From: a virus
Lineage: Duplodnaviria; Caudoviricetes
Virus record (IMG/VR): IMGVR_UViG_3300025678_000005
Reading direction: 5' to 3' (one strand)
DNA length: 64,000 bases
Shown: positions 1 to 28,966 of the stretch, in pieces
Position numbering within the stretch: position 1 is the stretch's first letter
How the letters are laid out: each line of letters opens with the position of its first letter
Program-made: the position numbers and the translations under genes
The notes under the pieces: generated by a model
The model's database searches: none
What the model was told of the DNA's origin: nothing
What the model saw: only the letters and a program-made list of their open reading frames with translations

Positions 1-1646
1 ATTCCAGAATCTAAAGAGTCATCTTTATATCTAGCTATATTCATTACAGTGCCACCACTTCCTTTAAAAGTACAAGATATATTAAAACCAAAAGTAGTTG
101 AAAAAAATCCAAAATTATTAATATCATAATTAGGAAACATTTGATTAGCTACATCTATATAAGCATATGAACCATTTTTTAATACAATACCTGGCGTTTT
201 TTCTCCATCAGTATCATTAATAAATCCAGTAGATATTCCATTTGTCTTTTTTAAATATAAATCTACACTACCATCAAATTGACTGGCAAAAGATCCTTCA
301 TATGCAAATATTCCTGTATTTGATATTGGATACTTTCAACTAGTATTACTTGACTGTGGAAAACCAGTTACCTTTGAATAATATGCCAATAAATTTTTAT
401 TAGTGTTATCGGCATACAAATCAATTTTTACTGCTTCTGTTATTTTTGCATAAACTTGCTTTGTATATTGTGCTGTTGAATCATCTGGACTAGATATAGC
501 ATAGGCATATAATTCTATAAGTAAATTATTATTTACATCAAAAGATACCGTGCTTATTGAAAAAGTATTATTTGTTCCCTTATTAATATTTGATATAGTT
601 CCAGACAATAATGAATTTCCTATTTTTTCACCATTTTCTTCTAAATATATATTATATATTATATTAAAAGTAGTATATTTTGTTGGAGCGTAACTCAAAT
701 AATAAGTAAAACTTAATTGAGATCCCTTTGATGTTTCAGTTAAACTGGTATAATCTTCTGATATTCCATCTGTAACAATAATTAATGAATTTGAGTCTGC
801 AATAGTAATACTAAATGTTAAAATATTTGATTTTAATTCAGTTCCATTTAATATTGTGCTTGCATATGCAGTAAAATTAAATTTTTGTCCAGTACGTATA
901 TTAGAAAAAAATATGTTTCCTAATAATATATCTTTTAAATCATATCTTAATGATTTCTGTTGTGTGGTTATATTTGATTGTTCATCTATTACAATATTAT
1001 TTACTGAAAATTTAAAATAAGTTACTGCTCCCGTAATATTATTTGTTATATCTATTACAAGAGGTATTTGTGAAGTAGATCCTATAATAATTGTTTTTGG
1101 TATATTGCTTTGTGTTTCAATTCTTATAGCTCCATATATTACATGCAAATATTGTGGCACCGCATAATTAGATAGTGAATCATAAGCAGTAATTTCATAA
1201 TCAGTATTCTCTGTAATACCAGATAATGTTATTTGTATTCAAGATAAAGAATATTTTTTCTCTGTATATATAATTTTTCCAGTAACTGTATTTTTAATAA
1301 CTATAGTAAATGGTTTTGAAATGGTTCCATTATTAATTAATAAATTAAATTTTACAGTTGAAGAAGAGGTATAAACAGTATTACCACCATCAATTTGAAT
1401 GGTAATATTGCCAGATTCTCCTCCTCCACCTCCAGTTCCACCATGCGCACCATTTATATATATTCAAGCTAAATTATTTTCTAGTTTTTGAATTTTATTA
1501 TATAATTTAGTAAATCCTTGACTAATAGATATAGAATTGCCTTCATTACTTAAAAAGGCTGGATTAGATAATTCTAAATCTACAGCATTAGAAGCACCAT
1601 CAATAATTCATTTCTGTAATATTTCATCAAAATGTTTTATTTTCAT
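1..1646 (-). CDS. Large virion/tail-associated protein, 5' part (runs off window); TGA=Trp
   Basis: ATG at 1646 (MKIKHFDEILQKW...). In frame with ORF 336..1160; the breaks read are TGA. Beta-rich, with a Gly linker. Confidence 0.75.
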
Positions 1647-4600
1647 TACTGTAATTTTTCTACTATTATATTATTATTTGGATTGGACGATCCATTTGAT
1701 TTTATTTTTGTTAATTGATTGACTGAAATAGGAACATTGTATTTATATGTTCAAGAAACAGATGGTTGTCCATTTAAAATTATCTTATAAACTTGTCCTA
1801 GTATTCTTTGTCTTGTATTTGTTGTTCCAGTTTCAGTTTCATTTCCATTTCCTATACTTCACATAATATAGTGTGGATTTTTTTGTGCAGAATTTACTGT
1901 AACTGTTACTGTATTTGTAAGAGGATCATAAGTTTCATTTGATACAGGATAATAGTTTTGTAATCAAGGAATATTTTTTGCTGGAAGTTCCTTATTTGAT
2001 ACTAATTTATATCCAGTTGCCTGATTCATTACATATTTTACATAATGTTGTGTGTTATCATTGCTTAATTGTACACACATTTTTCCTCTGTCTGAAAGAT
2101 TATTATATCAAGTAGGATAGATATTGTTAACAGGGTCATATGTTGGATCATATACAATAGGCTCCATGGTTGCATCTGGATTATCTCTTAATAATCTAGT
2201 TTCAGCATAAGTATGTTTATGTCCGCATAAACACATATCAAATAAGTTGTCTTCTAAAAATTTAGAAAATCAATAATTCCCTACTGTATTTAAATGAGAT
2301 CCACCTCTTTTAATTCCTGAATTTCTTTGTAAAATGCCTTGTGTATCTGGTTTTACATATGAATATATCAAATCTGCAGTTATAATACTAAAAGGAGATT
2401 CATGACAAAAAGCTATCTTTCAGTTAATGGTTGAATCTAAATAACTTAAATCATTATCACATCAATTTTTTATTGTATTTGTATATATATTAAATCCAGT
2501 AGCATCATTAAATATATCTTTTCTAGCTGTTTCTGTAATTTCAGAATTCATGCTTAGATAATAAGTATTACCATATATAAAACTATATAAAGAGGGAATA
2601 TAAATGCCTTCTGCTGTTTGTGGAATAGCATATGGATGTTCAAAAGTATAAAAATATTCTACATTTTTTGGATTTACTTTGCTAATATCATTTCCAACAC
2701 CTAAAGTATATACATCTAATGGACATAAATCATTATTTCCAACAGTAAACATATATTCATAATCTTTAAATAAAACATTGGCAGCATTAAAATGATCCAA
2801 TCATTCATTTATTCTATTTCCATTTTGAGTAGCATCTCCTGTATGTAATACCCAATCAAAAGTTTCATTATTTTTTATATATTCACACGGGAGTCTAAAA
2901 GTTTCATATTCTTCTGCATTAAATCCCTGTGGATCAGTTATATGTGCAACATTATATCCATTTTCTATTACCACATTTCTATTTCTTAACGTAAAAGATC
3001 TTTCTTCAGACCAAAATCCTTCTCTTCCTACTTTATATTTATATGTTTTACTTGTTGTGGGTTCTGGAAAATCTTTAATAAATTTATGTGTTGTAAAAGC
3101 AGTACCATCTGTTGTAATGGATCTTATTCTATTATAAATAGGACTATTTCAATTTTTATTGGATGTCCTTCCATCTCCAGATTTAAATGATTCAAACTTA
3201 TTGACCTCCGTATAATTTCCATTATCATCAGCAAATCAAATATATTCATCATAATATCCTTTAGATACTCAAGTAAAACATCTTGTAGTATGTGCATTAT
3301 ATCCAAAAGAACAAGTAATTATATTTACTCCTTCTTTTAAAAGAGTTTTATTATAAAATAAGTTCTTTTCTTTTGTTGGTGTATATTTTGTAAAGTCTAT
3401 TTTTGGATTTAATTGTCCTATATTAATGTAGGTAAAATCAGCAGAATTATCTCTAGCAGTAGCAGCTTTTATTGCTTGACTTACAAAATCCATAGTATAA
3501 TATCTTAAAATAAGTATATTCCTGCCTTTTACTGGAAATGGAGACTTTTCTGCTGGCATATTTATATTAGATATTTTACCTATACCAAGCAGATCAACAT
3601 AATAATGTGCAAACCCATCTGTGCTTCAGGGTGCAGTTGTATTAAGCATATTTTCTTGAAAATATCCATCAGTTTCTTCTCCAGATAAATAAAAAGAACA
3701 ATTGTCAGCAAATCTTATTAATCCATTCTCATCTCAGATATTATAATCTGGATCAGTTGTTTTAAACACATCTGGATGATAAGTTTGTTCTTTTGTTCAT
3801 TCCATGTCATAATTTAATACTTTAATATAAGTTGTATTTACATCCATAAATGAACATTGTGCCCCCCTAATAGTAAAAGTACCTTTTGATTTAATTACTC
3901 CTTTTAAAGGCAATGTAATCCATTGTCCTGATGTACTTTCTGTATAATGTAAATATAGTCCTTTTAGATTTAAATCCACATTAGTTAGATTTGATATTAC
4001 TATAAAATTATGTGAACATGGATTATAGTCTTTTGATGTTCCAGAACCACCAGCATACACTGTATCAATATAAATCATTGGAGATCCAGAATTTCCAGTT
4101 AAATCACTTAAAACAGGAAAATATGGTAATGTATAATATGTATTTTTTGATAATATTTGTGAATTACCAGCCAAAGTTTTTTTATCCAATCTATAATCAT
4201 ATAGATCCAATTTACCATTTTTTACACTTAATCTATAAGTATTTTCTAAGTTGCTCATATCTCCAAATTCTATTCCTACTATCTTTGTAGTAGCATTATT
4301 ACCTGAGCCTACTAGTTGTGTTAATATTTGTTCCATTGTTTCATCAGTTGGTGGTTCTTCTGTTCCATTTGAAGAACCTATTTGTATTAAATTATTTGTT
4401 TTTGGATCTTTAATTCATAATTGTTGTTTATCATAACATCATAATAATTCTTTTGGTAAAAAATTATTTTTATTGGCCATCATCTCTGCATATGTTCCAC
4501 TTTTTATACAAAGATGTGTTCCATTTGGTATTAAATCTTTATACTCTACAGGCTCTTCTTCAGTAACTATATTTTCTAATAATGTATCTAAATCTTCATC

Positions 4601-5230
4601 AGTATTTGATCCAAAATCAGGTTCTTCTGTAGTATGTCCAGTATATTCACTATAATGATTATTATTAAAATCACCAAAATCCATTTGATTACTAAAAGCT
4701 CATTCCAATCTATTTACTTTTTCTTGTAATATGGATATAACTTGTAGCAATTCCGTTATTATTGCATTCTCTGAACTAAAGGTATGATTATCTGATGTAT
4801 CTATTCATATTCCTGTAGAGTCTTCTGGTGGTGTAGATTGAATATATATTTTTGTAAAAGATTTTCAAATTTCTCCATCAAAATATCTTAAATCATTTAC
4901 TTCTTTAACAAAAACCAATTGTCCTGGAATTTTATAATCATCATTAGCTAAATCATTTAATAGGTTAACTTGTATAATTGTAGCTCCACCACCAGATCCA
5001 CTTATATTAAAAAGTTCTCAAGTTCCATTTGTATATTTATATATTTTATTGGTTTCAGATACATAAGCACACATACCAGTTCTTACTTTATTTGTATTTA
5101 ATAAAGCAGTTAATTGTGTAATAGTGTCTAATTGTATATAACCACCAATAAGATCTCTAGTATCAGCAATTGGAAAAGAACCATTATTTTTAGGTTTTAA
5201 TTGGCTTATTAATTCTATATATTCATTCAT
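1646..5230 (-). CDS. ~1194-aa putative virion protein with C-terminal purple-acid-phosphatase-like metallophosphoesterase; TGA=Trp
   Basis: ORFs 5018..5230, 4439..4684, 3797..4336, 3269..3559 and 2462..2800 share one frame and each ends at TGA; TAA at 1646. Motifs HITDPQG, LHTGDATQNG, VGNNDL, FCHES, CGHKHTY. Confidence 0.8.
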
Positions 5231-5929: not shown

Positions 5930-8900
5930 TTAAATTTCCTCCATAATTAAATTTCCATTTTCTATACTAATATTATATGATTTATCAGTATTTTTATCTT
6001 TTAATGTAATATGATCTTTTAAATAATTTATTTGTTCTTGTTGTTCTTTAATTGCATTTGTAAGTAGTGCTACCATTTGGCTATATTTAACTCCATCAAC
6101 AATATCATCTTGATATAGAACAAGTTTATCATCAATCTCTTCAACTTCTTCTGCTATAAAACCAAAATCTTCTTTGTTATCACTTTTTCATTTAAATTGT
6201 CTTGGTTTTAATTTTAATACAGCATTCAATCCTAAATTAAAATCAATTATATCATATTTATATTTTTGACTTGAAGAGTATCTAACTAATTTATATACAC
6301 CAGAATCTGATGTAGCATATACAGCTGTTCCAGTACCTGTTGTTGGGAGTCCTAATTTAAGGTCTCCTGGTATTTTAACTGTATTAGTAAAATTACTGTT
6401 TACATTTGTAATTGTTAGACCAGAACTACAATCATTAGTAAATGAAAATCCACAAATTTCATTTAATGTTTCATCAACATAAGAAGAACTATAATATACA
6501 TATATAGTACTAGCATCATAAATTGAAACAACTCTAATCAAAATATTAAAATTTGAACTTTCAATATCCTGCCTCATATTTGATCATTGTAAATATGTAG
6601 TATATAGTGTTGAGCTTGCAGGAAAAGAAATTGGGCCACTGTTAGATAATTCGTTAATGTGACCATTTTTATCAATATATCCAAAAAAAATTGTCGCAAC
6701 ATTTAATATGCTAGATGATATATTAATAGTAATGCGTAAGTTTGTAATGCTTGATCCAGATCATAAATTAAATGAAAATCCATTAAAGACTAATCAATCT
6801 GATTCTTGATTTTCACTCAATGTAACAGAATTATTATCTCAATTTGGCCCATTATCATAATCAATATTTGAATAACTAATAGTACCTGTATTATTTGTTG
6901 ATCTTGTTTTTGTTCCAATTGATGTTAATTTTACAATTGCATTATTTGTTGAAGGATTGTGTACATGGAATTTAGTATTACTATTAATATTGGCAATCCC
7001 TATTCCAACATTACCACCACCAGTTGTCATATAAACATTAGAATCAGAAAAATGATTTAAATAAATATTTCCAGCAGTATCACCAGATGCTTTATAAGAA
7101 TCAATATGAAAATTTCCACCATCAGATCCAGAAGTATTGGTTCTTGCCAACACACCAATTCCTCCAGTTGTATTTGTTATTATAATATCTCCATTAACAT
7201 TGGACGTTCCATCAAATAATTGTCCTCAAAGAGTTCGAGTGGTCTGTAACTTTGTTGCAGACGCTACATTATCAGTTACTAGTGCCAACTTTACTCAATC
7301 AGTTGCTGTACCACTAACTCTTTTCCTTGTAAAAATATCATTTGAATAAAAATCAAAAGCCAATGCTCTATTATAATATGTATCTCCATTACCGTGATTT
7401 AATTTAATAACTGACCATCAATTATTAGTTGGTACATTTCCATATGAATCTACTGTATTTGTTTGTAAAAATTGTACTTTATCGGTTATATTATTAGCAT
7501 TATTATAATTAATCAAATTAGCAGTTACAGATCCATTTGTATATCCACCTAAACTATAAGCATTTATATTATTTAAATTAGAATATAATATTCTTCATCC
7601 TGGAGAATAATCTACTCCATTATTTTGATATATTAATGTACTGTTTATTATACCATTAGATACTCCTGTAGTTGATGGTGTGTGTATAACTATAGTATAA
7701 TAACTGGAACTTCCAAATGTTTCTACTGTACATCCAGCTAAATGTAAATTTCCAAATCCAGTATCTGTAATATAATTATTTGCAGCATAAGTTCATTTTC
7801 CTCTGGCAATTCAATGTGGTTGATTGAATGCTCCTAACGAAGTTAACATTGATACAAAAGCAGCAGTAGTTATTCCAGTTTGAGATCCACCAAAAGAATA
7901 TGAATCAGAAAATGCTCTAGCAAATCCATTTGATTGTATTCCATCTAAATATTGAGAATTTAAATTAGTCACAAGAGCATTAGATGATAAAATAAATGGA
8001 GGATTGCTTCCATTAACAAACGTAGATACTATTTGTCCAGATGCTGATAATGTTCCTATACCAGCTAAATTTAATGTACCACTAGATCTATTTATATTAA
8101 CAGCAGTAGTTCCTATATACATAACTTGATTTATAGCGGCAATACCAGCAGCAGATAAACTGTTATTTACTCAATTAGTACCACTTCATTTTAATATATC
8201 ATTATCAGTAAGTGTTGAAATACTAACATTAGATAAAGAATTTAAAGAATGATTATGTGACGATAAAGCATAACTACTACTATCTAATGATCATGAATTA
8301 GTTGCTGTTTTTTTAAGAAATCCAACAGAACTATCTGATAGAGCAGCAATAGCATTTAAATCACCATCCAAAGGTTGATATACTCCAGCATGATCATGTG
8401 TTAAAGATGCTATTCCAGCCTCTGATAATGTATTATTCACTCATTTAGAGCCATCTCATTTGAGAATTTCACCAATAGTGTTAGAATCAATTGTAACATT
8501 GGATAATGAATCCAATATATGATTATGTGTTGAAGTAGCAAAACTTGATGAATGATAACCATCCAATAGATCGGCATTTAAATTAGCAACTAATGTTGTA
8601 GAAGTAACTGATAATGGTGCAGTACCTGTTGTTGCTGTAGATATTAATTGGAACCCTTGAATAGCTCCACTTGCTGTAATATCAGTTACAGAAGTTAATG
8701 CTCCTGATACATTAGCGGTACCATTAAAACTTTGTCCCCAAATAGTTCTTGCTGTTTGAAGTTTGGTTGCACTACTCGCATTCCCACTTAAAGCTCCATA
8801 AAATGTATTTGCATATATATTTATTAAACTAGTTCCTCCGCCATAAAAACCATATTCTGTAAAGTTTCCTCCGTCGTTATAATTTACATATAATCTACCA

Positions 8901-9909
8901 CTAGCTAAACCTCCTCCAATATTAACTTCATTACCAGCATGTAATGAAACTGCGGCTGCACTTGTTGCTGTAGCGGCATTACCAATTAATGCCCCTGCAA
9001 ACGTCGGAGCTGTTACTATACCTGTAAATGTAGGCGAAGCAATATTTGCTTTTAGGTCAATAGCTGCCTGAACGTCTTCAGGTGCTGGTGTCCAGTCTGT
9101 GGCTTTGTTGCCTTTCTCTATTTTTATTGTGTTATTTCCACCCAATCGCCTGCATTAACAACTGTAGGGCGTGTCATAAACCAACTGCCTGTGCTCAAAT
9201 CGAAATTCGCTGAACCTGTTATTTTAGCATATGCTTTGACAAATGTTTCTTCATTCAAAGGTTGTTCATAAGTGAAACTTCCAAAGCTGGTATTTGCAAC
9301 GCCAGTATTCATTATATAGTTATATGCTAGAGGGACTGTCCCCCTAACTAGCAAGGAAATTGTATACTGTTCTCCTGCTCGCAACAACATTTTTCTTGCA
9401 TTCGAACCTTGTTGAATACTTATATACCCAGAGCCATTGTCGGTTGTCTTGACGGTTGTAAGACCTTTATATTCGCCAAAAGATATAGTTCCAAATATAG
9501 TTCCATCTGAGTACGGAACCCACTCTTTAGAATTTGTTAACCGTGCTAAATTCCTGCCACCTATCTGAATATTATTTACCGCCGTTGAGATGTCTGAAGG
9601 GGTTGCTATTCCTGCTTCTACTAATGTATTATTAATCCATTTACTACCGTCTCATTTAAGTATTTCACCAGCAGAATTTGAAGTAATAGTAACATTAGAA
9701 TGACTGTCTAATGTATGTGCAGAAGGTGCAAAAGTTGTTGGTTTACCTCCTATATAATTTCATAAGGTGTCAAAGAAGTTACCATGAGTCCAAATTCTTT
9801 TAGTATCTTGAATAAATACTATAGATTTACTATCAATTAATCCATTGGCTAAATCTGTATCGAATCTAGCTTGTGTAGCATAATTAAGAAATTTTGTTTT
9901 ATAAGCCAT
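5930..9909 (-). CDS. Tail fibre/receptor-binding protein with C-terminal S74 intramolecular chaperone; TGA=Trp; one frameshift near 9127
   Basis: ATG 9909 (MAYKTKFL...IWTHG). Contains KIEKGNKATDWTPAPED and ATKLQTARTIWGQ fibre motifs and an S74-like tail SSQKYK...LKPRQFK(TGA)KSDNKEDFGFIAEEV. Fragments 8456, 7811, 6839 and 6188 share one frame. Confidence 0.8.
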
Positions 9910-9918: not shown

Positions 9919-12168
9919 TTAATAAGCATACGTTAATGTTCCATCAGACGCAATCTCGGCCCATCCCATTTTAACTTCTAAATTGGTAGTATCTCAGAAG
10001 AATTCTTCTCCAAATTTTAATGAATTAGTACCAATAGATGCTGCTGAAGTTGGATTTGAAGTTGTTCTTAATAATATATCTCTTCAGCTATCAGTTGGAT
10101 ATTCCCATTTAGGAAGACCTGTAGTAAGATCAAATGTTAAAACTCAATTATCAGATGTCGGATTAGCCAGTGCAGATAATGTATTAGTATTAGATCCATA
10201 TAGTATATTTCCTTTTCCTATAGAAGACAACCCAGTTCCTCCATAAACAACTCCTATTACAGAACCATTCCATGTTCCAGTTGTAATTGTACCTACTTTA
10301 GTTATTCCAGTACTTGCTGTGGTAAGATCAGAAATATCTGAAGTTACTATTTGATTTCATGCTGGAGCAGCACCAACAGTTCCAGTTCCAGTTTGAGTTA
10401 AATATTTTTTAGTAGTAGTGGTGTTTGGAGCCAACATAGATGTAGTATCTACATTAGACTGATAAGGTAATGAACCTAATACACCACCAGCCAAATTAGA
10501 AGCTTTATTAATTATATCAGTTGTCAATGCAATAATTCCACCATTATCTGGAAGAGTTCATGTTCTGTTTGCGGTTAAATTATTTCAAGTAAATATTCCA
10601 GTAAAAGCACTTGTAGCAGTACTATTTGGAGATATTTTAAATGTATCTGTTCCAGCTGTAGCATGTGTAAAGCTGACATCACCAACAAAAGTGGGACTTG
10701 TATTAAATACTACTTTTCCACTTCCAGTCTCATCACCAAGTATACTTGCTAATCCAGCAGAAGTATTAATATTAGAAGTATAAACTACTGTTCCTCCACT
10801 ACCAAAAGATATAGTAGAACCGTCTGTTCCACTTAATGTTACAGAATTATTTACCGTAAGAGTTTTTCCACTTGCAATAGTTAATGTTCCAGTGGTAGTT
10901 GTAATATTTAATCCATTTATAGATGTAGCAGTAGCAGCACCTAATATTGGTGTAGTAAAAGTTGGACTAGTTGTTAATGCTACTACATTTCCTGTTCCAC
11001 TTAATGTATAATTAGCAGATGCCACTCCACCAGAAGTTACAGAAATTAAAGATGTACTTGCTGGAGTAGACAAATTAAGCAAACTAAGTCCAGCCGTTGA
11101 AGTTGTTAAATTGGTTTGTATAACATCCCAACTATTTCAAGAAGATGCAGTAATACTACCATAAGCAACTGCAGCAGTATTATCTGTATTACAAATAAGC
11201 ATATCTCCTACTTCAACTGGTTTAGTATTATTAAAATTACCAGCTACAGATACTTTATATGTATCTCCTTTATTTGCAGCAGGTAATCCACTGGAAGTAG
11301 CATCTAATACACCTTTATAAACCATTGCATCTGTAGTAGCTATTATACTATTAACAGCTGAATAAACAGCTCCAGATGTAATTAATTTTGTGCTTCCAGA
11401 TGCTATAGAGCTATCTGCCTGCTGTCATACTGGTGCTCCGCTTGTAGTTGGCGTAAGATAGTAATCCGTTCCAGTTGTTCCAGAGGAAGTAGGAGCATAA
11501 AAAGTAGATGATTTTGCAGCACTATTATTATAAACAACAGCAGTTCCATTAATAGTTAATGTTAATGAATTTTGTAATGATCCAGAGAATATTAAAGCAT
11601 ATAATGTACTTGTTGATAAATCAACTTTTAAATTAGTATTAAAATTGGTTTCAGCAGAATTTGTTGTAGTAGCAGATGTTCCTGTTAATAAATAAGCAGT
11701 AGTAGAAGTAGTATTTAGATTCTGCTTAACTTGATTTAATGTAGCTGTTCTATTAGTTACTCCAGTATAATGTCCATATTTATCGAATACAAGTTGTGGA
11801 ACTGTTATAGAAGTAGAAGAATCTGCACTCGGGCCAGCAGATTGTGCTGCACTAAAAGGAGCACTATGTGTAAGAGTTGCAGCCCCATTAGTAGTTGTGG
11901 AGGATATAATAGTGTCTCCAGTTATTGACACTACACCAACATCAAAAGATGTTAATGTTTTATTAGATGCATCTTTTAGTGTAACAACTGATCCACTTAT
12001 ACTTGATGTAAATAATGGACTCGCAGAATCATTAAATATTCTAAAATATTGTCCATGTGTTCAAAGATAGCCATCTTCTGTAAATACTATTGATTTCTGA
12101 ATGGTATCTTTAGTTGGATAGGCGGTTTCAAATCCAGCTTTAGATTTTGCATAAATTAATTTACTCAT
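9919..12168 (-). CDS. Tail fibre protein (T/S/G-rich, ~749 aa); TGA=Trp
   Basis: ATG 12168 (MSKLIYAK...YL(TGA)THG). ORFs 11425, 11137 and 10585 are in the same frame; TAA at 9919. Confidence 0.8.
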
Positions 12169-14796: not shown

Positions 14797-14798
14797 AA

Positions 14799-15764: not shown

Positions 15765-15765
15765 A

Positions 15766-15951
15766 TTAACTATTTATTACAAATTCATATATAGCATCAA
15801 TATTTGTTAAATATTGATAGGTTTCTACAAACATTATTTTATTTAAAATATGACTATAGTCTACAGTATATCCAATACTTTCTTTATCAAGCCACTTGTT
15901 AAAAGAATCAATGATATTTAATTTTACATTAGTTAGTGCATCCACAATCAT
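15766..15951 (-). CDS. Hypothetical protein
   Basis: 61-aa ORF in the operon. Confidence 0.6.
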   Translation of the reverse strand: MIVDALTNVKLNIIDSFNKWLDKESIGYTVDYSHILNKIMFVETYQYLTNIDAIYEFVINS

Positions 15952-16666
15952 AAGTTATTTTAGTATCACATAAAAGACCACATTTTGATACTCTTTCAAG
16001 CATCTGTTGTGCTTCATAATATCTTGAAAAGGAAACTAGATATTTAATAGAATTAATTGCCATTCAAAACAAATCTCTATTGAATATTTTCTGTTTTATT
16101 GCATTATCATTTTCATTACAACTTTTTTGTAAATTTAAGAATAAATCTTTACATAAAATACCAAAACATTCATTTAAATGATATATGATAAATTTACCCT
16201 TTTCAGCTCTAATAATTGTAGAAGTAGCACTTGTTTCATTTAAAATATCATCTATAGTAACTTCTATTCCCTGTGGGTAATTTTTAAATTTATTACCCAA
16301 AGTATCATACCAATATATTTTAGAATATGCATCAAATGATTCTGATGAATGTCTTTCTAAGTACATTATCCAATTTTCATTTGGAATTATTAAATGTATG
16401 ATTTTGTATAGCCCATCATGCAAATCAGTAAAATAAGTTCTGTCTATTTCTGTTTCATGATTATTTATATTCATTGCTTCATATCTAGCATTGCCAACAG
16501 AATCAAGGCTATATAATACATTAACAGTAACAGTTTGACTATAAGTATAATTTCTTGTGCTTACAATTAATTGATCCTCAGTAAGGTATTCAGAATTATC
16601 ACTTTCTAATCCTTCTACACATATACCATAATTTTTAGTTTCAAATATATTAAATACTGCATCCAT
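15929..16666 (-). CDS. Hypothetical structural protein with C-terminal CGC motif; TGA=Trp
   Basis: ORF 16064..16666 read through TGA ends ...CGLLCDTKITYDCGCTN-TAA. Confidence 0.7.
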
Positions 16667-16668: not shown

Positions 16669-16905
16669 TTATTTTTTTGTTATTTTAGCGGATAGTCCTA
16701 CAGCTGCACAAAACGTAATAATATATCCACATATTTTAAATACTATTTCAGAAACTCCATATTCTTGTAAATTAAAGGCTTTGTCAGCCATCAATACTGC
16801 AACGGCAGATGAACCAATTATGGTTGCCAATTTTAACACTTTTTGTCAAAACTCTGGACTCTCTGCTTTTCATCTTTCTTTAAGTTCTTGAATTCAATTA
16901 ATCAT
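16669..16905 (-). CDS. Holin-like two-TM membrane protein (78 aa); TGA at codons 4, 12 and 20
   Basis: MINWIQELKERWKAESPEFWQKVLKLATIIGSSAVAVLMA...ICGYIITFCAAVGLSAKITKK: two hydrophobic segments and a basic C-terminus; absent from ORF track. Confidence 0.65.
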
Positions 16906-19093
16906 TTTTTATTTCGTCATTTCTTTTGTTTGTATCAATAAGCTGAACTCCCTCCAACTCTACTCTCTTTTGTTGTAACTTAACTAATTCTTCCTTATAA
17001 TTACTATCTGTTTTGGCTTTATATCACTGTATTTGTTTTTCAAATTCTAATTTTTCATTTTCAAGTCGTAGTTTCTCTTCATTTAAAGCCTCTATCTGTT
17101 TTTGAAGTTGCTCTGATTGCTTTGTTGAATCTTTTAAGGCACCATCTAGTTGTTGTAGTTGTTCTATAAGTTTTTCAACTTCATTTTTTTCATTCTGTTT
17201 TTTTACTAAAGATGATTTTACGGTTTCCTTCATCTGTGTCAGGCTACTAGATGTTATAATATCTACTAATATATCTGGATCTACCATATTATTTTTAGTT
17301 AGTTCTATTCCAAATTGTTTTATTAATTCTTGGTCTCTTATAATATCTGATGTATCTACAATACTTATGTCAAAATCAGTAAGTGTAAATTGTTCTGGCA
17401 ATGCAGTAAATACCTTATTTAATTTTTCTCCAAGAATGAGTGTTCCAGATAAACCATTCTTATATACTTTTTTTGCTACATTTAAAATATCAATAAGCAT
17501 TTCTGCTGTTAGAGTATTCATTATCTGATAATATTGTTTTGTAATATAGGATGATTGTCTAACACCAACTTGTACATTTGTAACAGCATCTCTTTGCTCA
17601 ATACCACCAAGTCTTTCTCGAAATACACCAGTTATTAGTGAACAAGCGTCTTCATTTCTCTGAATTGCAAGGTCTATGGCTTGTATAGCCTGTATTCTGA
17701 CTGTATCATCAAATCCACCAAATATTGTATTTGGCATGGAAGGCATACCTTCCTGTGTAGAATCGATCAATGCCATACCTGTTTTTTTATATGCTTTTCA
17801 TTTTAAAAGCCTTTCTTCTGGTGTATTTCCAAGAAAAGCGGGCAAATAACCAACATCAATTCAATCTCCAACAGTTCCAGATTCTGCTATAATATTGTCT
17901 TTGTAAAAATATAATATATCATTTCTGTCTTGTAAATCGGCAGTTTTAAGCATAATTGAAAACGGATCTCCATTCCTGTCAGAATAGAAAACACCATTAA
18001 TAGATAAACTTGTAGACTTTGGATCATCAATACTTCTTATTGCATCTTCATCTTTTCCATGTAAAATATAAATAGAACCTCCAATTCTAACTCCACTATA
18101 TCGATTTACAATATAACTTCCATCCTCTTTCTCCGTTTTTAACCATTCTACTTCATAACATGGAAAAGTTCTCATTTGCTTTGCAGTAGATGTTTGATAT
18201 GGAAGTAGTGGAGATACTTCAAATCCACCAAGAATTCCATCACTTTGTGTAGTATTATTTACAGAATTATCAAGTGTTCTGACATAAGTAAAGCTTCCAT
18301 TAGCCTCTAATCCTGATTTTGTTTCCAAACTCTCAAGATCATCTTTTGTTAAAAGATCTCCATATTTGGCAAGAATTTGGTCTTTTGTTAAATATTCTCT
18401 GATTACAGCTCTTGAAGAATTTTTTAAATAGATAGATTCTACATTTCTATCTACAAAAGTATTAAGAGGATTTAATACTTTTAAAACAATATTAGTTTTA
18501 GATGGAGATGGTTGAACACGGTAGTATGCCATTCCAGAAACTAATAGGTCTATTAATAATGTTTTTCTTTGGTTTAAAAAATCAATTTTTCTATTTTGTA
18601 ATACTCAATTAACAATATTTTGTCCAGCAATTTCATAATCAGAAATAAAATTATTTTCTATACTTTCTTTTAATTTTTCCAGTCTATTTTCTACTTCCTT
18701 GTCATAACCATCCGAACTTATATTATTATAAATTCTGTCTTTTAAATATTTACGTAATTCACTTGCTATTGCATTATTTATAGCTATTTGTTTTTCTTTA
18801 AATATGTTTGATAGTGTAGCTTCATCTTTACATGTAACTCTAGGCAACAATTCTGTTGATATATATTCTCCAACTAAAACATCTACATGTTTTCTAACCA
18901 TTGGTATAAATTCAACAGATGTTGGCGTTCCTATTCCATAATTAAATTCTAGATGTCTATACTGCTCTGGGTCTCTTTTACCATGGTAATAGTTGTAAGC
19001 TTTTAAAACCTGTACTTTATCATATACAAGTTCAGATATTGCCTTATTTATAATATCTATATACTCTTGTTCCTTTTTTGTTCTATTTTCCAT
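16898..19093 (-). CDS. Portal protein; TGA=Trp
   Basis: ORFs 18605, 17861 and 17024 are in frame (~731 aa). Lies next to terminase; crAss-like portal motifs (KAYNYYHGKRD, ITGVFRERLGGIEQRDAVTNV) and a C-terminal coiled coil. Confidence 0.8.
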
Positions 19094-19096: not shown

Positions 19097-19372
19097 TTAT
19101 TTCTTATTAGGTGTACGAATTGTTCTATAATATTCAAAACGAATATAATTACGTGTTGCCAATTCATTATATATATATTTTAAAAAATCTTCATCATTAG
19201 ATGCTTCACAAATTAAAACAGTCGGATACATATAACTTGGTATTCCCAATTTTAATGTATATATAGAATCTTCTTTAATTACTTCTAGAAGTCCATTAAA
19301 AATTGCTCCATATTGAGTCTTTATAAAGTCACGAATCCTGTTCTCCAGGTCTTTCCTGTAAATTTCGTTCAT
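19097..19372 (-). CDS. Hypothetical protein
   Basis: 91-aa ORF between terminase and portal. Confidence 0.7.
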   Translation of the reverse strand: MNEIYRKDLENRIRDFIKTQYGAIFNGLLEVIKEDSIYTLKLGIPSYMYPTVLICEASNDEDFLKYIYNELATRNYIRFEYYRTIRTPNKK

Positions 19373-21386
19373 AATCGTTTGTTGGAATTATTCCATAATG
19401 TTTGTATCCTCTGAAATCTGTTCATCATCCCACATGATGAAATTCTTTATTTTTCTTTATTCTCTCTTTTGGTTTTAATACAGCCAATTCCTCATCTCCA
19501 AGTTCAGCCATTCCCATTGCTGCCACAATATCAAATTCTTTCTTTTTTGCATCAGAATATCTTAATAATTGATCAACCATGTCCCTAAAATGCATCGTAT
19601 GTGAGTAATCAAGAATAAAATCATATAACAATTCTCTATAATGTGTAATTGTTTTAACTGTTGCTGGAGCGCCATACATATTTGAATTTCCCTTTACTAC
19701 ATCCGTCATTGTAGACCTTGGTCTTTTCATTAATAAATGTATCAGTTTATTATCTCTAAAATAGGTTAATATGGCTGTTCTCGTAGATTCAAGTACTGCT
19801 TTGCAACCATAATATACTAATAATTTAGCAGCAGTATCATAAGCTTCTTTTAAATATTTTGGCCTATCATTATACATTGCTACATACATTGGATCTTTTA
19901 ATCCAAATATTCTTTTTTTGATTACAATACAAAATTTAGATCCACCAGAACCAGAAGCAGAATCTTCAAGTCCTATATCAATAGAGTCTATTCCACCAAC
20001 ATATAAATTATCATAATATTCTCCATCTTCTGTTTTAATTGGATGTTCTATGATAGAAATTTTTCCAAATTTAGCATCTTCAACTCACTCAACTCCAATT
20101 ATTTCGTCTTTTTCATTTCTTTTCCAAACCAAATAACCTACTGAAGGTTTTTTTGTATTTTTATGTACTTCAATATTTGTCATTTGGTTTGCCAGTTGTT
20201 CTTGGGGGAAAAAATTATCTCCTTCCAAACTAAAAGCCTCATCTAATGTAAAACAGTATTCTGCTTTATAAATCATTAAGTCCTTTGGCTTATGTTCAAG
20301 AACTTTTCTTTCTTTTTCATAATGAGCCTTTGCCAAATCTGGATCACACCACCCTCTATTATCAAGCAATTCAAAAACAATTTTAGTTGCTGGAATAAAG
20401 AATGCAGAAAATGTATAAGATCCATCTTTAGTATAATTATGTCTATATTTTAAAATATTATATGCTTCTGGGTCTGTTACAATATCTTTTAACCCAGCTA
20501 ATTGTGGCCCAGTATCTCCACCAGTTCCTCACACAATTCTAGTTCCTACTCTACTTCCTCCTAATACTTTAATTAATGCTTCTCCCTGAATATATTTACT
20601 TTTTAAATTTGGATCAGATCCAGCCTCTTCAAATAATAGCCTTTCTGTTCTATCACCCCTTATTTTTTCTGCAGAGTCTGCAATTACCCCCTCTATTTCT
20701 GACATATGTCCTTTTTCAGAACCATCCTTTGTTTTTTTGGATGCTCTTTTATACGTATTAGTGTCAATTGCCATTCTTAAATGCTTAAATCCTTTTTCAG
20801 TTTCTTCATTTAATCAGTTAAGCTGTGCCCATATTTTAGATAAAATTGGAGACAAATGTCTTTCTGATGGAGCGGTAACAAGAGTTCTATAATTAGGAGT
20901 AGTTGTATATGGTCTTACAGCCAACTCTGCACCTATTTCAGATAAACCAACACCTCTTGATTTTATAAGCCCAATATCATATCCCAACAATTCACACATT
21001 TCAACATAATGAAAATATTCATATTGAAATACTAAGAACATTGGAAATTCTATTTTTCTACCCCTGCTCTTTTCATTTCTAGACCCTTTTAGTCTATGAA
21101 AATTTAATCAAAAATAATTATCACCAGAAATCCTATATCCATTTGATTCATAACCTTCAACGCATCTCCTAATTCTTTCAGATCAAAAATCTCTATAAGA
21201 TTGTGTACCAAACACTGTATCACTATATTTACCAGTATTCATTTTATGTATAGCGTCCTCTCTAAATCAATCAGGATTAAAGTCCAATCCACTTGTTTTA
21301 TTAATTGGTATATATTTTGTTAACTCATAAGATAAATTAGTATCAAAATATTCTATAGGATCAGTTATTTTTACATCTCATTCCAT
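19296..21386 (-). CDS. terL: Terminase large subunit; TGA=Trp
   Basis: Starts ME(TGA)DVKITDPIEYFD. Walker A-like KSRGVGLS, Walker B LLFEEAG, coupling motif (TGA)GTGG, RNase H-like YVGGIDSID and FDIVAAMG. Four fragments share one frame. Confidence 0.88.
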
Positions 21387-23961: not shown

Positions 23962-24208
23962 ATTTTATATAAATAATTTGTTTTTCGTTTTTTAAAGAAT
24001 CTATTTTTTCAGTTAATATAGAATCTTTTACTTTTAATACAGTATTAATACTGTCTAATTTTGATATTTTTAATTCATATTCATTTATTATTTGTTTTCT
24101 ATCTTTTTTATATTTGTTTGAAAAACAAAAAATTATTGATATAAATATAATCAATATCAATATAATTTTAAAATACGATTTTATTTCTTGATGCTTTAAA
24201 TTTATCAT
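23867..24208 (-). CDS. i-spanin-like protein (N-terminal TM plus coiled coil)
   Basis: KIILILIIFISIIFCF followed by heptads. Confidence 0.55.
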   Translation of the reverse strand: MINLKHQEIKSYFKIILILIIFISIIFCFSNKYKKDRKQIINEYELKISKLDSINTVLKVKDSILTEKIDSLKNEKQIIYIKYDKKIKFVYDASAVNHAEWLDSIVKMNSVRK

Positions 24209-25058
24209 GTTCTAATTCTTTTTTATAGTATAATAACATTCTTTCCACATCATTTTTTAAATAATTACATGGATAGTAGTTAATATTATCTGCATGATCA
24301 TAATGCGCTATCGTCAAAGATTTAATAATTGCATCTGGATTATTTTTTTCTATTATCCATGCATATGTTGACAACTGTAAACTATATTGCCAATAATTTG
24401 AATCCATTAAATTATTCAATGGAAACTTCATCATTACATTTTTCTTTTCTTTTCTATCATAAAAAGATTCCATATCTATTTTTGAAGAAGACTTATAATC
24501 TACAACATGTATTTCATTATTATCAACAATAACTAGATCTGCTTGTCCAGCTAATCTAAAACTACTATCTTTTGTAATATGTGATAATAAAATTTCTGGA
24601 TATATGGCTTGTGTTCCTAATTGTATTGTGTTAGTTGTATTAGGTAAAAATTTACCTCCTAATTTTAAATAACTTAATTCCTTAATGTCACCAACCAAAT
24701 TACCAGATTCTAATTCTTTATGTAGTTTTGTTCCTCTAATACAAGATTCCCTTGATTTGTTATTCCACTCTTCTATTACTTGCTGCTTTGTTATTAAAAA
24801 TATGTCTTTATCAATAGACCACTCATCCAAAAGAGATTCTTTAAAAGTTTTTGTATCTAGAAGCCACATCTTGAATTCATGAAATCTTGGACTTATCTTT
24901 TCAAGAGCTTTATAGGATGCCCAAAAATCACTATCGAATGTTGTAAACTTATGTATTAAAGTAGTAACAGAAATACATTCTTGTAATGTATTTTTTGTTA
25001 AATATTTGTGTGAAGCATCTTCATAAATAACATCTCTATTTTCCTTGTCAATATTCAT
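24168..25058 (-). CDS. PD-(D/E)XK exonuclease-like nuclease
   Basis: ISVTTLI, RGTKLH, LAGQADL, VVDYKS, YSLQLSTY. Confidence 0.8.
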   Translation of the reverse strand: MNIDKENRDVIYEDASHKYLTKNTLQECISVTTLIHKFTTFDSDFWASYKALEKISPRFHEFKMWLLDTKTFKESLLDEWSIDKDIFLITKQQVIEEWNNKSRESCIRGTKLHKELESGNLVGDIKELSYLKLGGKFLPNTTNTIQLGTQAIYPEILLSHITKDSSFRLAGQADLVIVDNNEIHVVDYKSSSKIDMESFYDRKEKKNVMMKFPLNNLMDSNYWQYSLQLSTYAWIIEKNNPDAIIKSLTIAHYDHADNINYYPCNYLKNDVERMLLYYKKELEHDKFKASRNKIVF

Positions 25059-25935: not shown

Positions 25936-28194
25936 TTATAGATGCAATATTTCACAGGAATTGCCATTACAAGCCTGTGCAGAATAATGATTAATTTCTT
26001 TATATTCTGGTTTTGTTAAAATAGTATTAAATTTAACTGTTTTAAATTGTCTGTTAATAACTTCTCATTTGTGTAAAAGATTCAAATCCTTTAAACAATA
26101 TATAGTCTTTTGTAAATCTCCACCAAAATAATTATTTGCAAACTTTTTAACTCTGCTAATCCAATACTTTTTTAATATTATTTGTTCCTTTGTTCCAGTT
26201 ATTTGTAGTTTTCTATCTTTAACCAAATCACATGCAGCTCATAAATTTTCATTAAAGTAATGCAATCCATCAACTATTAAACCAGAAGCAAATAATACAC
26301 CACGACCATATCTATCCATTAGTTCTTGTTCTGCAAGTATAGATGTATATGGAGCTTGATTATAATCTTTATCTATAGAATCAGTAACAAATGATACTGC
26401 TGTAAAATATTCTCTATTATCTCATATATAATCTATCATTTCTGAAAGATTATCTATAATAACAGTATTAGAAGTATTATGATGTGTTCCTTTATAAGCG
26501 CCAAGTTCTTCATTTACACCAATATTTACTCAATTTTCCTGTACAAATTTTATTAACTCAAGATGTTTTATTCCTTTTAAATCTTGTTTATATAAACCAT
26601 CTGTATTGTTTTCTATTGGAATAAATATAGCATAATCAGAATTATTCTGTGAGTCTAAGGCATCTTCTAATAAAAAAGACATATTTTTATTTAACCATTT
26701 TGCTATTTCATTTGATTTATTTATTCGCATTATTCTAAAATATTTTTTTGCATGTTCTGGATGTATGCCAGAAGCAGTGCCAAGAATAACGGAAGAGTTG
26801 CCAGAAGGTTTTACACAAGTCAATCTGGCTGCTGGAGATACATTTATAAAATTACCAATGACTTTATTTGTTTCTTTAATTACTTTAACTCCGTGTTCTA
26901 ACCATTCCTCATTAAATAACTTTGTATTATTCATCCACCCTGTAATAGAAATACCCAGCAGTGAATCTTGTTGAACTATTTCTTTTGTTGTGTCACCCAA
27001 ATAATCAAAATTATTATAACCACACTGTACTGTTCCAAGTATAGCAGCAGCTTTACAGGCATCTATGAATTTTTCTTCAGTAGTACAATTCTCTGCATTT
27101 ATCTCAGTTAAATTGCAAAAAGAAACTCCAAGATCTTGAAGATGATCTTTTATAAATTCTTCTAATTCATTATAAGATAATTCATTTATCTTTTTATCAA
27201 ATCTTTTATAAGCTATTGGATGTTGTAAAATTTCAAAACAAGGATTGAACATATCAAATCAAGAATTTGCAAAAGCAAATCCAATATCGTTTTTTTCATT
27301 ATTTAAAGAAATAATTTTATCAAATTGTTCTTTACTTGTTTCATTTCTTAATAATAAGACAGAATTATTTGTTCTGCTTCTTTGTGGATTGTCTATCCAC
27401 CAATTTCCAGTCTTGGCATTAATCATCTCTTCATCATTAATATCAACAATCATACACATTGCTGACCTTCTAATACCACCACTTAATACTGCTTCAGATG
27501 CAAAACATAAAATGTCACAAACAAGTATTGGTCTAATAACACATCCTTCTGTCTTTATTCAATTGTCAAGTAATTTTTCTATATTATTAAGTGCTTTTCT
27601 AAGGCCTTCCGATCCAGGGGCTTTAAATCCACCAGATATATAAGATCCTTCTGGTCTTATTCTTGAATAATCAAATTTTATTTTTTTACCAGCATATTGT
27701 GGAAAAGGTTGATTTGTGCTAAAATAAGATGACATTAAAACACCAAGAGCATCTGCTCAACTTTCTATATTGTCTTCAATATAAAAAGTCTCTGTTCCAG
27801 TAGTTCTTTCTTGTAGTCTTGGTAAATTATTAACAAATGGAAGTAATAATCCTATTCCAACACCACAACCACACAAAGAAAGATAAAACACTTCTTGAAA
27901 TACTCTTGGCCTTGCAGCATATATTGTAGAACAATTATATAATCTTGCATTATGTTTTTCTATTTGTTCATTCCTATATTGCAAACTTCTTTGTGATGCT
28001 AAAACATTTTTTGATTTCATTTGCTTAAGAGCAAATTCTAAATATCTATTTAAATCTTCATTATTATAATGCTTGATATGTCCAGATATAATATCCTCAC
28101 AAGCCTCCTCTCATGTTTCATATCTATCATCTTTCCATTTCAGGTAATCTGAATACAGTTTTAAATCACTTAAAAATTTTTTTCCTTTTTCCAT
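25936..28194 (-). CDS. nrdJ: Ribonucleotide reductase (probably class II, NrdJ-like); TGA=Trp
   Basis: ATG 28194. RYET(TGA)EE, LYNCS, GGIRRSA, NPCFEI, FCNLTEI, TCVKPSG and C-terminal ACNGNSCEI all in one frame. Confidence 0.8.
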
Positions 28195-28216
28195 ATAATA
28201 TAAATATAGTTTATTA

Positions 28217-28250
28217 AAAAAGCCCATTATTCCAATATAAAATAATGGGC
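28217..28250 (-). terminator. Intrinsic terminator-like hairpin
   Basis: GCCCATTATT...AATAATGGGC followed by a T-run on the minus strand. Confidence 0.55.
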
Positions 28251-28322: not shown

Positions 28323-28490
28323 TTATAATCTATGATAATTTTTTACCTTATCTCCTACTAAATCTGGCTCGTATTCAAGTAATGTCTGTCTTATAAATTT
28401 TTTTGATGGGTTGCCCAACATTAGTTGTATGCCAGCATACGTATATCCTTCTTTTCTCAGTTCTATAATTTTCTCTTGTAGTTCTGTCAT
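28323..28490 (-). CDS. Small HTH-like protein
   Basis: MTELQEKIIELRKEGYTYAGIQLMLG. Confidence 0.55.
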   Translation of the reverse strand: MTELQEKIIELRKEGYTYAGIQLMLGNPSKKFIRQTLLEYEPDLVGDKVKNYHRL

Positions 28491-28508
28491 TTTATGTACT
28501 TTTAGCTG

Positions 28509-28581
28509 CACCCTCGCCCCGATTCGAACAGAGATCTGACAATTTTGAAGATTGTGGTTTTACCAATTAAACTACGAAGGT
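28509..28581 (-). tRNA. Opal suppressor tRNA (anticodon UCA), probably Trp-accepting
   Basis: Cloverleaf ACCTTCG/CGAGGGT; D arm GTTT-AATTGGTA-AAAC; anticodon arm ACAAT-CTTCAAA-ATTGT; T arm CTCTG-TTCGAAT-CGGGG. A1-U72 and G73, short variable loop, no encoded CCA. Confidence 0.92.
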
Positions 28582-28597: not shown

Positions 28598-28605
28598 CAA
28601 AGTTA
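28598..28605 (-). promoter_or_regulatory. TAACTTTG promoter box upstream of the suppressor tRNA
   Basis: TAnnTTTG consensus 17 nt upstream of the tRNA 5' end. Confidence 0.55.
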
Positions 28606-28744
28606 TGTAAAATTATATGATATATATTAAAAAATTTATTGTTTATGAAAATATTACTTTGTTTTAATTGGTAGACATATTTCTATATAATTTTATTTGT
28701 TTTATATATTATTTTTTAATTATATTGCCTATAAAATAGAAATT

Positions 28745-28966
28745 TTAATTAATATCTTCAAATATTTGTTTTAAAAATTCAAATGTAAGAGCATTTAATT
28801 TTGTTGAAATATATTTATCTAAATCAAGTCCAGTAGAGTAAATTTCTATTGTCTCGTCATCAAATCTAATAGTTCAAAAATCTTTTTTAAATTCATCCAT
28901 TATACTGTTATAATTTCTAGAAAATACACTCTCATCTAATAGTTTAATTATTTCTTTTTTTGTCAT
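28745..28966 (-). CDS. Hypothetical protein (73 aa); TGA=Trp
   Basis: MTKKEIIKLL...KDF(TGA)TIRFD...EDIN-TAA. Confidence 0.5.

Follow-up and report, generated by a model that had tools for sequence, protein, structure and literature searches.

The 64,000-nucleotide stretch of DNA analysed here (the window) comes from a ~138-kb (138.5-kb) crAss-like phage contig with two oppositely oriented arms, a leftward structural (late) arm and a rightward replication arm. The leftward arm runs from window position 1 to ~28,966, goes on beyond the window and, if the contig is circular, is ~87 kb long; it encodes proteins of packaging, head and tail as well as giant virion proteins, the giant genes that adjoin the tail genes being five in number (489-2921 aa) and having no PHROG match. 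GC content is about 26%, with a GC3 of 0.12. The features of the window are as follows.

1..1646, minus strand: C-terminal portion of a 2641-aa virion protein whose gene extends past the window edge; 4 TGA in the window, 26 in the whole gene
1646..5230, minus strand: 1194-aa protein with Metallophos and weak lamin-tail domain matches; 20 in-frame TGA
5930..9909, minus strand: tail-fibre gene with a C-terminal Peptidase_S74 chaperone domain; 18 in-frame TGA
9919..12168, minus strand: 749-aa virion structural protein, its N-terminus paralogous to the tail fibre; 9 TGA
12174..16666, minus strand: additional late genes that are tail, tail-fibre-like or unknown (405, 113, 357, 321, 61 and 245 aa); 1-4 TGA in five of the six, none in the 61-aa gene
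16898..19093, minus strand: portal protein (PHROG/Pfam; phrog_6547); 4 in-frame TGA
19296..21386, minus strand: terminase large subunit, TerL (PHROG/Pfam; phrog_6681); 10 TGA, 4 TGG
24168..25058, minus strand: PD-(D/E)XK nuclease within the recoded arm (PF12705, just over the cut-off); 6 TGG, 0 TGA
25936..28227, minus strand: class II (monomeric RTPR-like) ribonucleotide reductase (RNR); 8 TGA, 7 TGG
28252-28220, minus strand: terminator-like hairpin after the 55-aa ORF
28323..28491, minus strand: 55-aa helix-turn-helix-like ORF without Trp codons, immediately downstream of the tRNA
28508..28581, minus strand: tRNA of 74 nt, anticodon UCA (opal suppressor)
28745..28966, minus strand: 73-aa ORF containing a single in-frame TGA, upstream of the tRNA and at the upper limit of the stretch marked in the preliminary description
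30399-30659: small ORF upstream of the tRNA, one TGA
30695..31417, minus strand: first gene of the leftward arm, a 240-aa HTH_36/DnaD_N protein, no TGA
31418..31682, no strand: point from which the arms diverge; GC skew and the coding strand both flip here
31683..64000, plus strand: standard-code arm with many small ORFs and the replication module; no in-frame TGA
37803..38132, plus strand: gene whose TGA end overlaps the next start (ATGA, 38129-38132)
45738..46340, plus strand: 200-aa gene whose TGA end overlaps the next start (ATGA, 46337-46340)

The preliminary description of this DNA had proposed that the left arm reads TGA as Trp while the right arm uses it as a stop, and that two-code observation was borne out in every detail examined. 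Translated with table 11, positions 1-28,966 give only fragments on the minus strand, the longest of 301 aa; when TGA is read as sense, the same strand yields ORFs of 1194, 1071, 763, 749, 731 and 696 aa, and coverage by frames of at least 100 aa rises from 0.67 to 0.95. In this comparison of coding density, which had been put forward as a check, table 11 performed poorly and the gain was equal for tables 4 and 25; reading TAG as sense left the left-arm ORFs unchanged. The fragments of the terminase, portal, RNR and tail genes join in frame across TGA, as had been claimed, and PHROG and Pfam matches confirm what these genes are. Every break in the gene calls is a TGA, apart from a 1-nt indel in the tail-fibre gene at 5930..9909, which in the contig consists of a 261-aa and a 1071-aa frame broken by a T deletion at about 9126. 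The frameshift noted earlier near 9127 is real, in that one T is missing relative to a 99.98%-identical independent assembly in which the gene is a single 1326-aa ORF. The six paralogue motifs quoted as instances of interchange between TGA and TGG were all found where they had been placed, with the codons given. Across the leftward arm, in-frame Trp codons comprise 251 TGA and 76 TGG, and TGA occurs in 39 of the 52 recoded-arm genes. The TGA share, 0.77, is near the A-share of other NNR pairs (0.80-0.88), and TGA positions are evenly distributed along genes with a marginal difference in the next base (p = 0.04). TGA in the left arm behaves like any A-ending synonymous codon.

Homologues support Trp as the amino acid. 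The alignment of TGA columns with homologues had been set beforehand as the refutation test, and in the RNR comparison those columns proved to be Trp: 6 of 8 are conserved Trp in cultured standard-code phages (of Rhizobium, Pseudaeromonas, Microcystis and Oceanospirillum), 2 of these also in PDB 1l1l, and syntenic RNR orthologues have TGG in 49 of 53 informative cells. The TGA columns of TerL hold TGA, TGG, Phe or Tyr across 59 relatives and, in the standard-code contig MT835470, Trp, Phe or Tyr, with Ile at one. Genome-wide, comparison with two relatives gave TGA 53 times, TGG 17, Tyr 11, Leu 9 and Phe 5, and Gly in none of the 114 aligned columns. Code 25, in which TGA is Gly and which is of the Gracilibacteria/Absconditabacteria-host type, was rejected on these 0 of 114 columns and on the TGA-free right arm. 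Taken as alignment evidence, the data support the reading of left-arm TGA as Trp. The proteomic validation published in PMC9523058 concerns TAG-to-Gln only.

In the right arm, TGA is supported as a stop. Its named genes encode a DNA methylase, an AAA ATPase, ClpP, a ferritin-like protein, PolA, a SNF2/DEAD helicase, a DnaB-like helicase, AAA_24 and a Toprim primase. As previously described, these genes are uninterrupted: the 91 called genes contain 144 TGG and 0 in-frame TGA, and they end in TAA (74), TAG (9) or TGA (8). The two ATGA overlaps reported at 38129-38132 and 46337-46340 are present, and at one orthologous right-arm C-terminus the stop is TGA, TGA and TAA in three phages. Plus-arm Trp columns in relatives are TGG in 81 cases and TGA in 1. 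No convincing TGA-bridged right-arm gene was found among stop-to-stop frames with at least 40 codons on each side of a TGA; of two such frames, one is two separate genes by orthology and the other matches no called gene. Chance is excluded as the cause of the TGA-free right arm, since, were the left-arm share of 0.77 to apply, 144 Trp codons without a single TGA would have a probability of ~1e-92. The density of off-frame TGA is alike in the two arms (3.3% vs 3.1%), and other A-ending codons account for 79-87% of use in the right arm. Because 8 of the 91 early genes end in TGA, these would be extended after the switch.

The leaders of this phage are A-rich, as in Bacteroidota, with a Shine-Dalgarno core in just 3% of genes; together with the crAss-like TerL, this points to a Bacteroidota host. 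Bacteroidota use the standard code. The indications of a standard-code host are indirect, namely the crAss-like TerL, the lack of Shine-Dalgarno motifs and a TGA-free early arm with TGA stops.

The tRNA at 28508-28581, detected by ARAGORN and by Rfam (55 bits), is the sole tRNA detected in the 138.5-kb contig. It has a short variable loop, an A1-U72 pair, G73 and the anticodon loop CUUCAAA. In E. coli, the G73 discriminator and the A1-U72 pair are identity elements of tRNA-Trp. With G73, A1-U72 and an anticodon loop like CUCCAAA, tRNA(UCA) is of the bacterial tRNA-Trp type and is a predicted TrpRS substrate. G73 is present in 14 of 14 related suppressors inspected, and in the 178-kb relative G001, which has 27 tRNAs including an apparently unused tRNA(CUA), the suppressor anticodon arm is near-identical to that of its own tRNA-Trp(CCA); the extra Trp-anticodon-like hairpin carried by the tRNA of some relatives is absent here. 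In this phage and its relatives alike, the gene is located at the recoded arm's head, and its position upstream of TerL and its strand are kept in at least 18 related loci, also in G001 and G003. Searches of the contig found no TrpRS, release factor or other recognisable helper. The TAACTTTG box upstream of the tRNA is not callable as a promoter on statistical grounds: in a genome this AT-rich, TAnnTTTG is no more frequent than chance would give.

The division of codes by arm holds overall and is slightly too simple, since within the recoded arm the nuclease uses TGG only and the RNR is recoded in this phage only. Clade-wide, the PD-(D/E)XK nuclease has 8 TGA vs 100 TGG (26 orthologues), and 8 TGG-to-TGA changes in the RNR are absent from the syntenic orthologues of relatives, which are almost all TGG. 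At the head of the arm, in keeping with the idea that the code times late expression, the TGA share is 7% for the nuclease and 5% for the relatives' RNR; the larger packaging and tail genes reach 56-88%, and several small ORFs 40-50%. The major capsid gene is TGG-rich (TGA 2/7 and 1/7), the copy of this phage, beyond the window, having 2 TGA. TGA use does not cleanly equal late structural genes, because the ORFs at 28745-28966 and 30399-30659 have one TGA each. The recoded RNR is a DNA-metabolism gene that adjoins the tRNA, and it counts against a model in which the code times late expression.

With many Crassvirales, TerL shares 26-32% identity over ~90% of its length (E 1e-42 to 1e-54), and with the nearest GenBank contig 47%; the nearest GenBank contigs are unclassified. 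The phage falls in a distinct clade, many members of which are uncultured (59 IMG/VR loci at 55-66%). TerL and portal homology, the replication block and the nuclease in the structural block place the phage, by sequence criteria, among the crAss-like phages (Crassvirales in the broad sense). In that group, TGA-to-Trp reassignment in the late-gene part is described mostly for groups Beta, Delta and Zeta (Yutin et al. 2021, Nat Commun, PMC7886860), and the preliminary description was right that late-biased stop-codon reassignment is known there (Yutin 2021; Borges 2021; Pfennig 2022). This phage shares with those of PMC7886860 a crAss-like TerL and portal, opposed arms, late-only TGA = Trp and its own suppressor tRNA; a replication block with PolA, a DnaG-type primase, DnaB and SNF2 helicases and an AAA ATPase; and a PD-(D/E)XK nuclease in the structural block, with a block of giant genes after the tail genes. 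It differs from them in having only one tRNA where they have an array, and in its separate TerL clade. By its published description, the Zeta phage Lera (PMC12386605) is also similar, with TerL and structural genes that read TGA as Trp, a tRNA-Sup(TCA), a large genome and Trp at suppression sites shown by alignment; its 26 tRNAs, including an unused tRNA-Sup(CTA), resemble the set of G001 and not that of this phage.

The Agate and Jade gut phages (10.1101/2021.08.26.457843) likewise combine a standard-code replication module with structural TGA, a suppressor tRNA and low GC, for which Borges et al. proposed a role in timing late and lysis genes; unlike this phage, they are of other lineages with predicted Firmicutes hosts, and Jade has a 'code change module' of TrpRS, RF1 and tRNA whereas this contig lacks TrpRS and release factor. 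The block-wise dual coding recognised with Mgcod (Pfennig et al., 10.1101/2022.06.29.495998) is also matched: code and strand switch coincide, the early block is translatable in both codes, in-frame TGA aligns with TGA or TGG, and the strand block of late genes has the suppressor tRNA at its 5' end. A Sup-TCA tRNA was detectable in only 3 of 17 complete code-11/code-4 genomes in that study, whereas one is present here.

Our model, which we regard as very probable, is that the phage is written in two codes, that its own tRNA(UCA) decodes the TGA = Trp arm, and that the switch couples virion production to middle or late infection. An unmodified standard-code host can read the right arm, in which TGA serves as terminator. 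Given its A1-U72 pair and G73, and a contig without TrpRS, we infer that tRNA(UCA) would be charged by the host TrpRS. It would compete with host RF2 at UGA, so that full-length late proteins would be made only after the tRNA had accumulated; the code change would in this way tie virion production to a middle or late infection stage, and genes required before the tRNA stage would be kept TGA-free. Since up to 26 TGA occur in one protein, near-complete suppression would be needed, yet the contig holds no recognisable helper. Both the tRNA position and the late-timing idea have been published (PMC7886860; 10.1101/2021.08.26.457843; 10.1101/2022.06.29.495998), and our data are consistent with that hypothesis.

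Passive codon capture is possible, if somewhat doubtful: the pattern would be real without being a regulatory device, AT-biased mutation having turned TGG into TGA where the tRNA was already present while selection purged early genes. The TGA share of 0.77 lies near the equilibrium, mutational or compositional, of other NNR pairs, GC3 is merely 0.12, the 8 changes in this phage's RNR are expected from drift, and a low-GC route to recoding was proposed by Borges et al. (10.1101/2021.08.26.457843). Gene by gene, its prediction is identical to that of the regulatory model, so no evidence here tells the two apart; conservation of architecture and tRNA position across phages with only 55-65% TerL identity suggests selection without proving it.

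A more specific version of the two-code model, which we offer tentatively and consider rather unlikely, is a minimal code switch in which a lone, plain 74-nt tRNA(UCA), with no TrpRS or release factor, implies an unrecognised early-arm factor that improves charging or else disables or outcompetes host RF2. The recoding frontier would recently have advanced to the tRNA gene, as this lineage alone has a recoded RNR. Besides a phage ClpP, the early arm has numerous small ORFs of unknown kind, and such a factor might be encoded there.

It is improbable that the suppressor tRNA mainly harms the host, through UGA read-through and weaker defence proteins, with phage recoding secondary. Such a role has been raised for Zeta crAss-like phages (PMC12386605), relatives retain suppressor tRNAs and the tRNA(CUA) of G001 is apparently unused; this phage plainly needs its tRNA for the 39 genes with TGA, and sequence is silent on any host effect. 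Far less probable is a host whose own code (4 or 25) assigns an amino acid to TGA, with the phage following suit and its right arm TGA-free for some other reason. The low GC resembles that of code-4 bacteria and the density gain is equal under tables 4 and 25, yet none of the 144 right-arm Trp codons is TGA despite the prevalence of A-ending codons there, eight right-arm genes end in TGA (one end being orthologous to TAA), no Gly occurs at TGA columns, the phage's own tRNA(UCA) would be superfluous, and TerL and the leaders point to Bacteroidota. There is a negligible probability that the contig is decaying or chimeric and its broken genes are pseudogenes or errors of assembly: the tail-fibre gene does contain one true 1-nt indel, yet all other breaks in gene calls are TGA, sense TAG adds nothing, the independent assembly shares the TGAs over 22 kb, and 59 relatives carry TGA or TGG at the corresponding columns.

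Altogether, this phage offers a clean, well-controlled example of a phenomenon that is already published, not new, and the nuclease, RNR and capsid details leave the current picture unchanged. The two-code layout must be recognised to annotate the phage, as the standard code leaves about one third of the late arm outside long ORFs and fragments the terminase, portal, RNR and tail genes. The clade-wide standard-code nuclease, the RNR recoded in one lineage only and the TGG-biased capsid make the system useful for studying the spread of recoding and the efficiency of suppression.

Read with table 11, the minus strand to the left of ~29,000 contains short ORFs only, whereas with TGA read as sense the same stretch opens into ORFs of 1194, 1071, 763, 749, 731 and 696 aa. 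Coding density by translation table changes accordingly: coverage of the left arm by stop-to-stop frames of at least 100 aa rises from 0.67 under table 11 to 0.95 with TGA as sense, while reading TAG as sense has no effect on left-arm coverage by such frames. The window spans bases 32,019-96,018 of a 138,532-bp IMG/VR phage contig, and the remainder of the minus-strand arm (genome 1-32,000 and 112,000-138,532) behaves alike when TGA is sense. Matches to PHROG and Pfam identify the terminase large subunit (TerL), portal, ribonucleotide reductase, tail-fibre proteins and a PD-(D/E)XK nuclease and also, beyond the window, the major capsid protein; the giant proteins have no match in PHROG. Based on simple ORF-based gene calls, the 52 genes of the minus arm contain 251 in-frame TGA versus 76 TGG, with TGA present in 39 of them, and the 91 genes of the plus arm contain 0 in-frame TGA versus 144 TGG. 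The observation of two codes, made in the preliminary description, is fully confirmed: genes broken by TGA on the left become long ORFs, all six paralogue motifs that it quoted lie where it placed them with the codons it gave, and right-arm ORFs are uninterrupted and encode Trp as TGG. Its reading of both codes, with TGA as Trp on the left and as a stop on the right, is supported.

Features of the window discussed in the text
24168-25058, minus strand: PD-(D/E)XK nuclease within the recoded arm, 6 TGG and 0 TGA
25936-28227, minus strand: class II ribonucleotide reductase (RNR), 8 TGA here
28508-28581, minus strand: tRNA with anticodon UCA (ARAGORN; Rfam, 55 bits)
29147-29422 and 30139-30384, plus strand: two gene calls inside the head of the leftward arm, a weak Hsp20-like ORF and an 81-aa ORF
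51708-52286 and 52726-53226, plus strand: ClpP protease (PF00574, 3e-53) and ferritin-like protein

The cleanest test of what TGA means is RNR. Of its eight TGA columns, six hold a conserved Trp when compared with RNRs from cultured phages that use the standard code (Rhizobium, Pseudaeromonas, Microcystis and Oceanospirillum), and at two of these six the Lactobacillus enzyme of solved structure, 1l1l, has Trp as well; in syntenic orthologues from related phages the TGA columns are TGG in 49 of 53 informative cells. In TerL, each Trp column switches between TGA and TGG over 59 related loci, the only other residues being Phe, Tyr and Leu, plus Arg in two cells; the TerL of MT835470, the nearest standard-code contig, has Trp, Phe or Tyr at 9 of 10 TGA columns and Ile at the remaining one. 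Genome-wide alignment with two relatives (G001 and G003) placed TGA 53 times, TGG 17 times, Tyr 11 times, Leu 9 times and Phe 5 times at TGA columns, and Gly at none. Comparison with homologues thus upholds Trp at the TGA positions, and the genome-wide residues therefore exclude both table 25, in which TGA is Gly, and selenocysteine-type readings. Within the left arm, TGA makes up 77% of Trp codons, near the A-ending share of the Lys, Glu, Gln, Leu and Arg pairs (80-88%), and sense TGA is evenly distributed along genes, with no positional bias found within them and with the following base differing only marginally (p = 0.04). TGA therefore behaves as an ordinary synonymous codon in this arm.

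A frameshift near 9127 had been singled out as an exception to the TGA breaks, and it is real. Frames 9124-9909 and 5930-9145 (minus strand) are offset by one base, and a near-identical ENA assembly has one more T at the 9120-9130 site (L089 ~19960), where the tail fibre is a single 1326-aa ORF. By comparison with that assembly the break is a 1-nt deletion, either a strain variant truncating the fibre or an assembly error, and does not belong to the code phenomenon. The surrounding region (8000-12000) has a GC content of 0.34-0.35 versus ~0.26 elsewhere and spans paralogous tail-fibre modules that are richer in TGG than their neighbours; both features may stem from a recent swap of fibre modules.

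The right arm carries the replication genes (PolA with exonuclease, SNF2/DEAD and DnaB-like helicases, an AAA_24 ATPase and a Toprim primase), together with a DNA methylase, ClpP, a ferritin-like protein and many small ORFs; ClpP and the ferritin-like protein are unusual cargo in a phage replication arm. Its 91 genes end in TAA (74), TAG (9) or TGA (8). The two arms are alike in their use of other A-ending codons and in the frequency of off-frame TGA. Only two right-arm stop-to-stop frames have sizeable parts on either side of a TGA, and one of these corresponds to two distinct genes in both relatives, the first of which ends at the same point with TGA in this phage, TGA in G001 and TAA in G003. 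Of the eight TGA-ended genes, no more than two have a match in these two relatives and just one match reaches the C-terminus, so that orthologue support for TGA as a stop comes from one gene; a 200-aa TGA-ended early gene has no relatives in viral contigs. Both of the ATGA overlaps claimed as TGA gene ends were found. This orthologous gene and the two overlaps provide direct comparative evidence that TGA ends genes in the right arm. Trp columns in the plus arms of relatives are TGG in 81 cases and TGA in 1.

The sole tRNA found in the contig is the opal suppressor tRNA(UCA), which lies ~3 kb inside the leftward arm and is followed by a 55-aa HTH-like ORF, a terminator-like hairpin and RNR. At least 18 related loci have a tRNA(UCA) at this position upstream of TerL and in this orientation, as do G003 and the complete 178-kb genome G001, which both share the two-arm, two-code layout. 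In the cloverleaf, assigned from ARAGORN and Rfam, the variable loop is short, A1 pairs with U72, position 73 is G73 and the anticodon loop reads CUUCAAA; A1-U72, G73 and this loop are bacterial tRNA-Trp identity features, apart from position 34. Because similarity searches were uninformative, finding nothing in E. coli genomes and only weak phage matches to tRNA-Met and tRNA-Lys, the isotype is assigned from these identity elements and the decoded columns. The minimum-energy fold is not better than that of shuffles, and a search of the contig found no release factor or TrpRS families. A TAnnTTTG box upstream of the tRNA was discarded as a host-type (Bacteroidota -7) promoter, since the motif occurs at 160 and 130 sites per strand versus ~125 expected, and a sigma-70 scan was at chance level. 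The tRNA(UCA) of some relatives is 93-100 nt long with an extra hairpin in the variable region (L018:3281-3376, L025:1555-1654, L052:990-1082 and L069:1331-1425), an arm that the 74-nt tRNA of the window lacks; in three of the four the hairpin loop is CUCCAAA or GUCCAAA, which copies the anticodon loop of tRNA-Trp, and in L052 it is CUUCCAACC. G001 (L076-L084; 19.8-33.6 kb and 24197-24271) has 27 tRNAs, among them an amber suppressor tRNA(CUA) besides tRNA(UCA).

TGA use corresponds better to gene class than to strand. The PD-(D/E)XK nuclease has 8 TGA versus 100 TGG over 26 distinct orthologues from relatives (L013-L071), compared with 357 TGA versus 171 TGG for TerL; the nuclease gene resembles a standard-code island conserved in the clade and may be expressed before the switch. 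Syntenic RNRs of relatives are nearly pure TGG (4 TGA versus 81 TGG in L029, L034, L045, L052, L069 and others), and the eight TGA in this RNR are therefore the mark of recoding that has spread as far as the tRNA gene in this lineage only. The major capsid gene (genome 22166-23593, outside the window) uses TGA in 2 of 7 Trp codons, and its G001 orthologue in 1 of 7, versus 77% for the arm overall, hinting that suppression has a cost. One TGA is present in each of two small ORFs upstream of tRNA(UCA). Genes required before tRNA(UCA) accumulates would have to avoid TGA, and the uneven use fits such avoidance; passive codon capture fits it equally well.

Coding strand and GC skew switch at ~31,500. 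Of the two plus-strand genes in the head of the leftward arm, one, the weak Hsp20-like ORF, is followed by a terminator-like hairpin, and the other, the 81-aa ORF, has a signal-peptide-like N-terminus and is followed by a bidirectional hairpin. Some 77 nt are common to both contig ends with 1 mismatch, followed by an inverted assembly hairpin (genome 1-77 and 138,440-138,516, outside the window); a circular genome of ~138.4 kb, complete despite its label of linear and 75% complete (CheckV estimate), is therefore probable. The independent ENA assembly (136 kb) is 99.98% identical to the contig across 22 kb. GC content is ~26%. The TerL of the phage is 26-32% identical to those of many Crassvirales. 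A Shine-Dalgarno core precedes only 3% of genes, leaders are A-rich, and where the early arm begins, two plus-strand sites (32435-32470 and 34687-34721) match the Rfam DUF805b RNA motif above its gathering score. TerL similarity, leaders and RNA motifs are together consistent with a host in the Bacteroidota, members of which use the standard code.

Recoding of this kind has been described before. Yutin et al. (PMC7886860) described 243 crAss-like phages in which TAG is recoded to Gln or TGA to Trp, mostly in the late-gene part alone, with suppressor tRNAs present. In the model proposed by Borges et al. (10.1101/2021.08.26.457843), late and lysis genes are timed by the switch and the suppressor is charged by host TrpRS; a role in timing late expression, as the preliminary description also suggested, is the standard hypothesis. 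Block-wise dual coding was formalised by Pfennig et al. (10.1101/2022.06.29.495998), who observed that the late-gene strand block carries the suppressor gene at its 5' end and that TGA or TGG stands opposite in-frame TGA in alignments. Proteomic proof in PMC9523058 is of TAG-to-Gln only. Zeta phage Lera (PMC12386605), like this phage, has recoding in TerL and structural genes. Given these precedents for the same pattern, the two-code layout described here is a further case of a published phenomenon.
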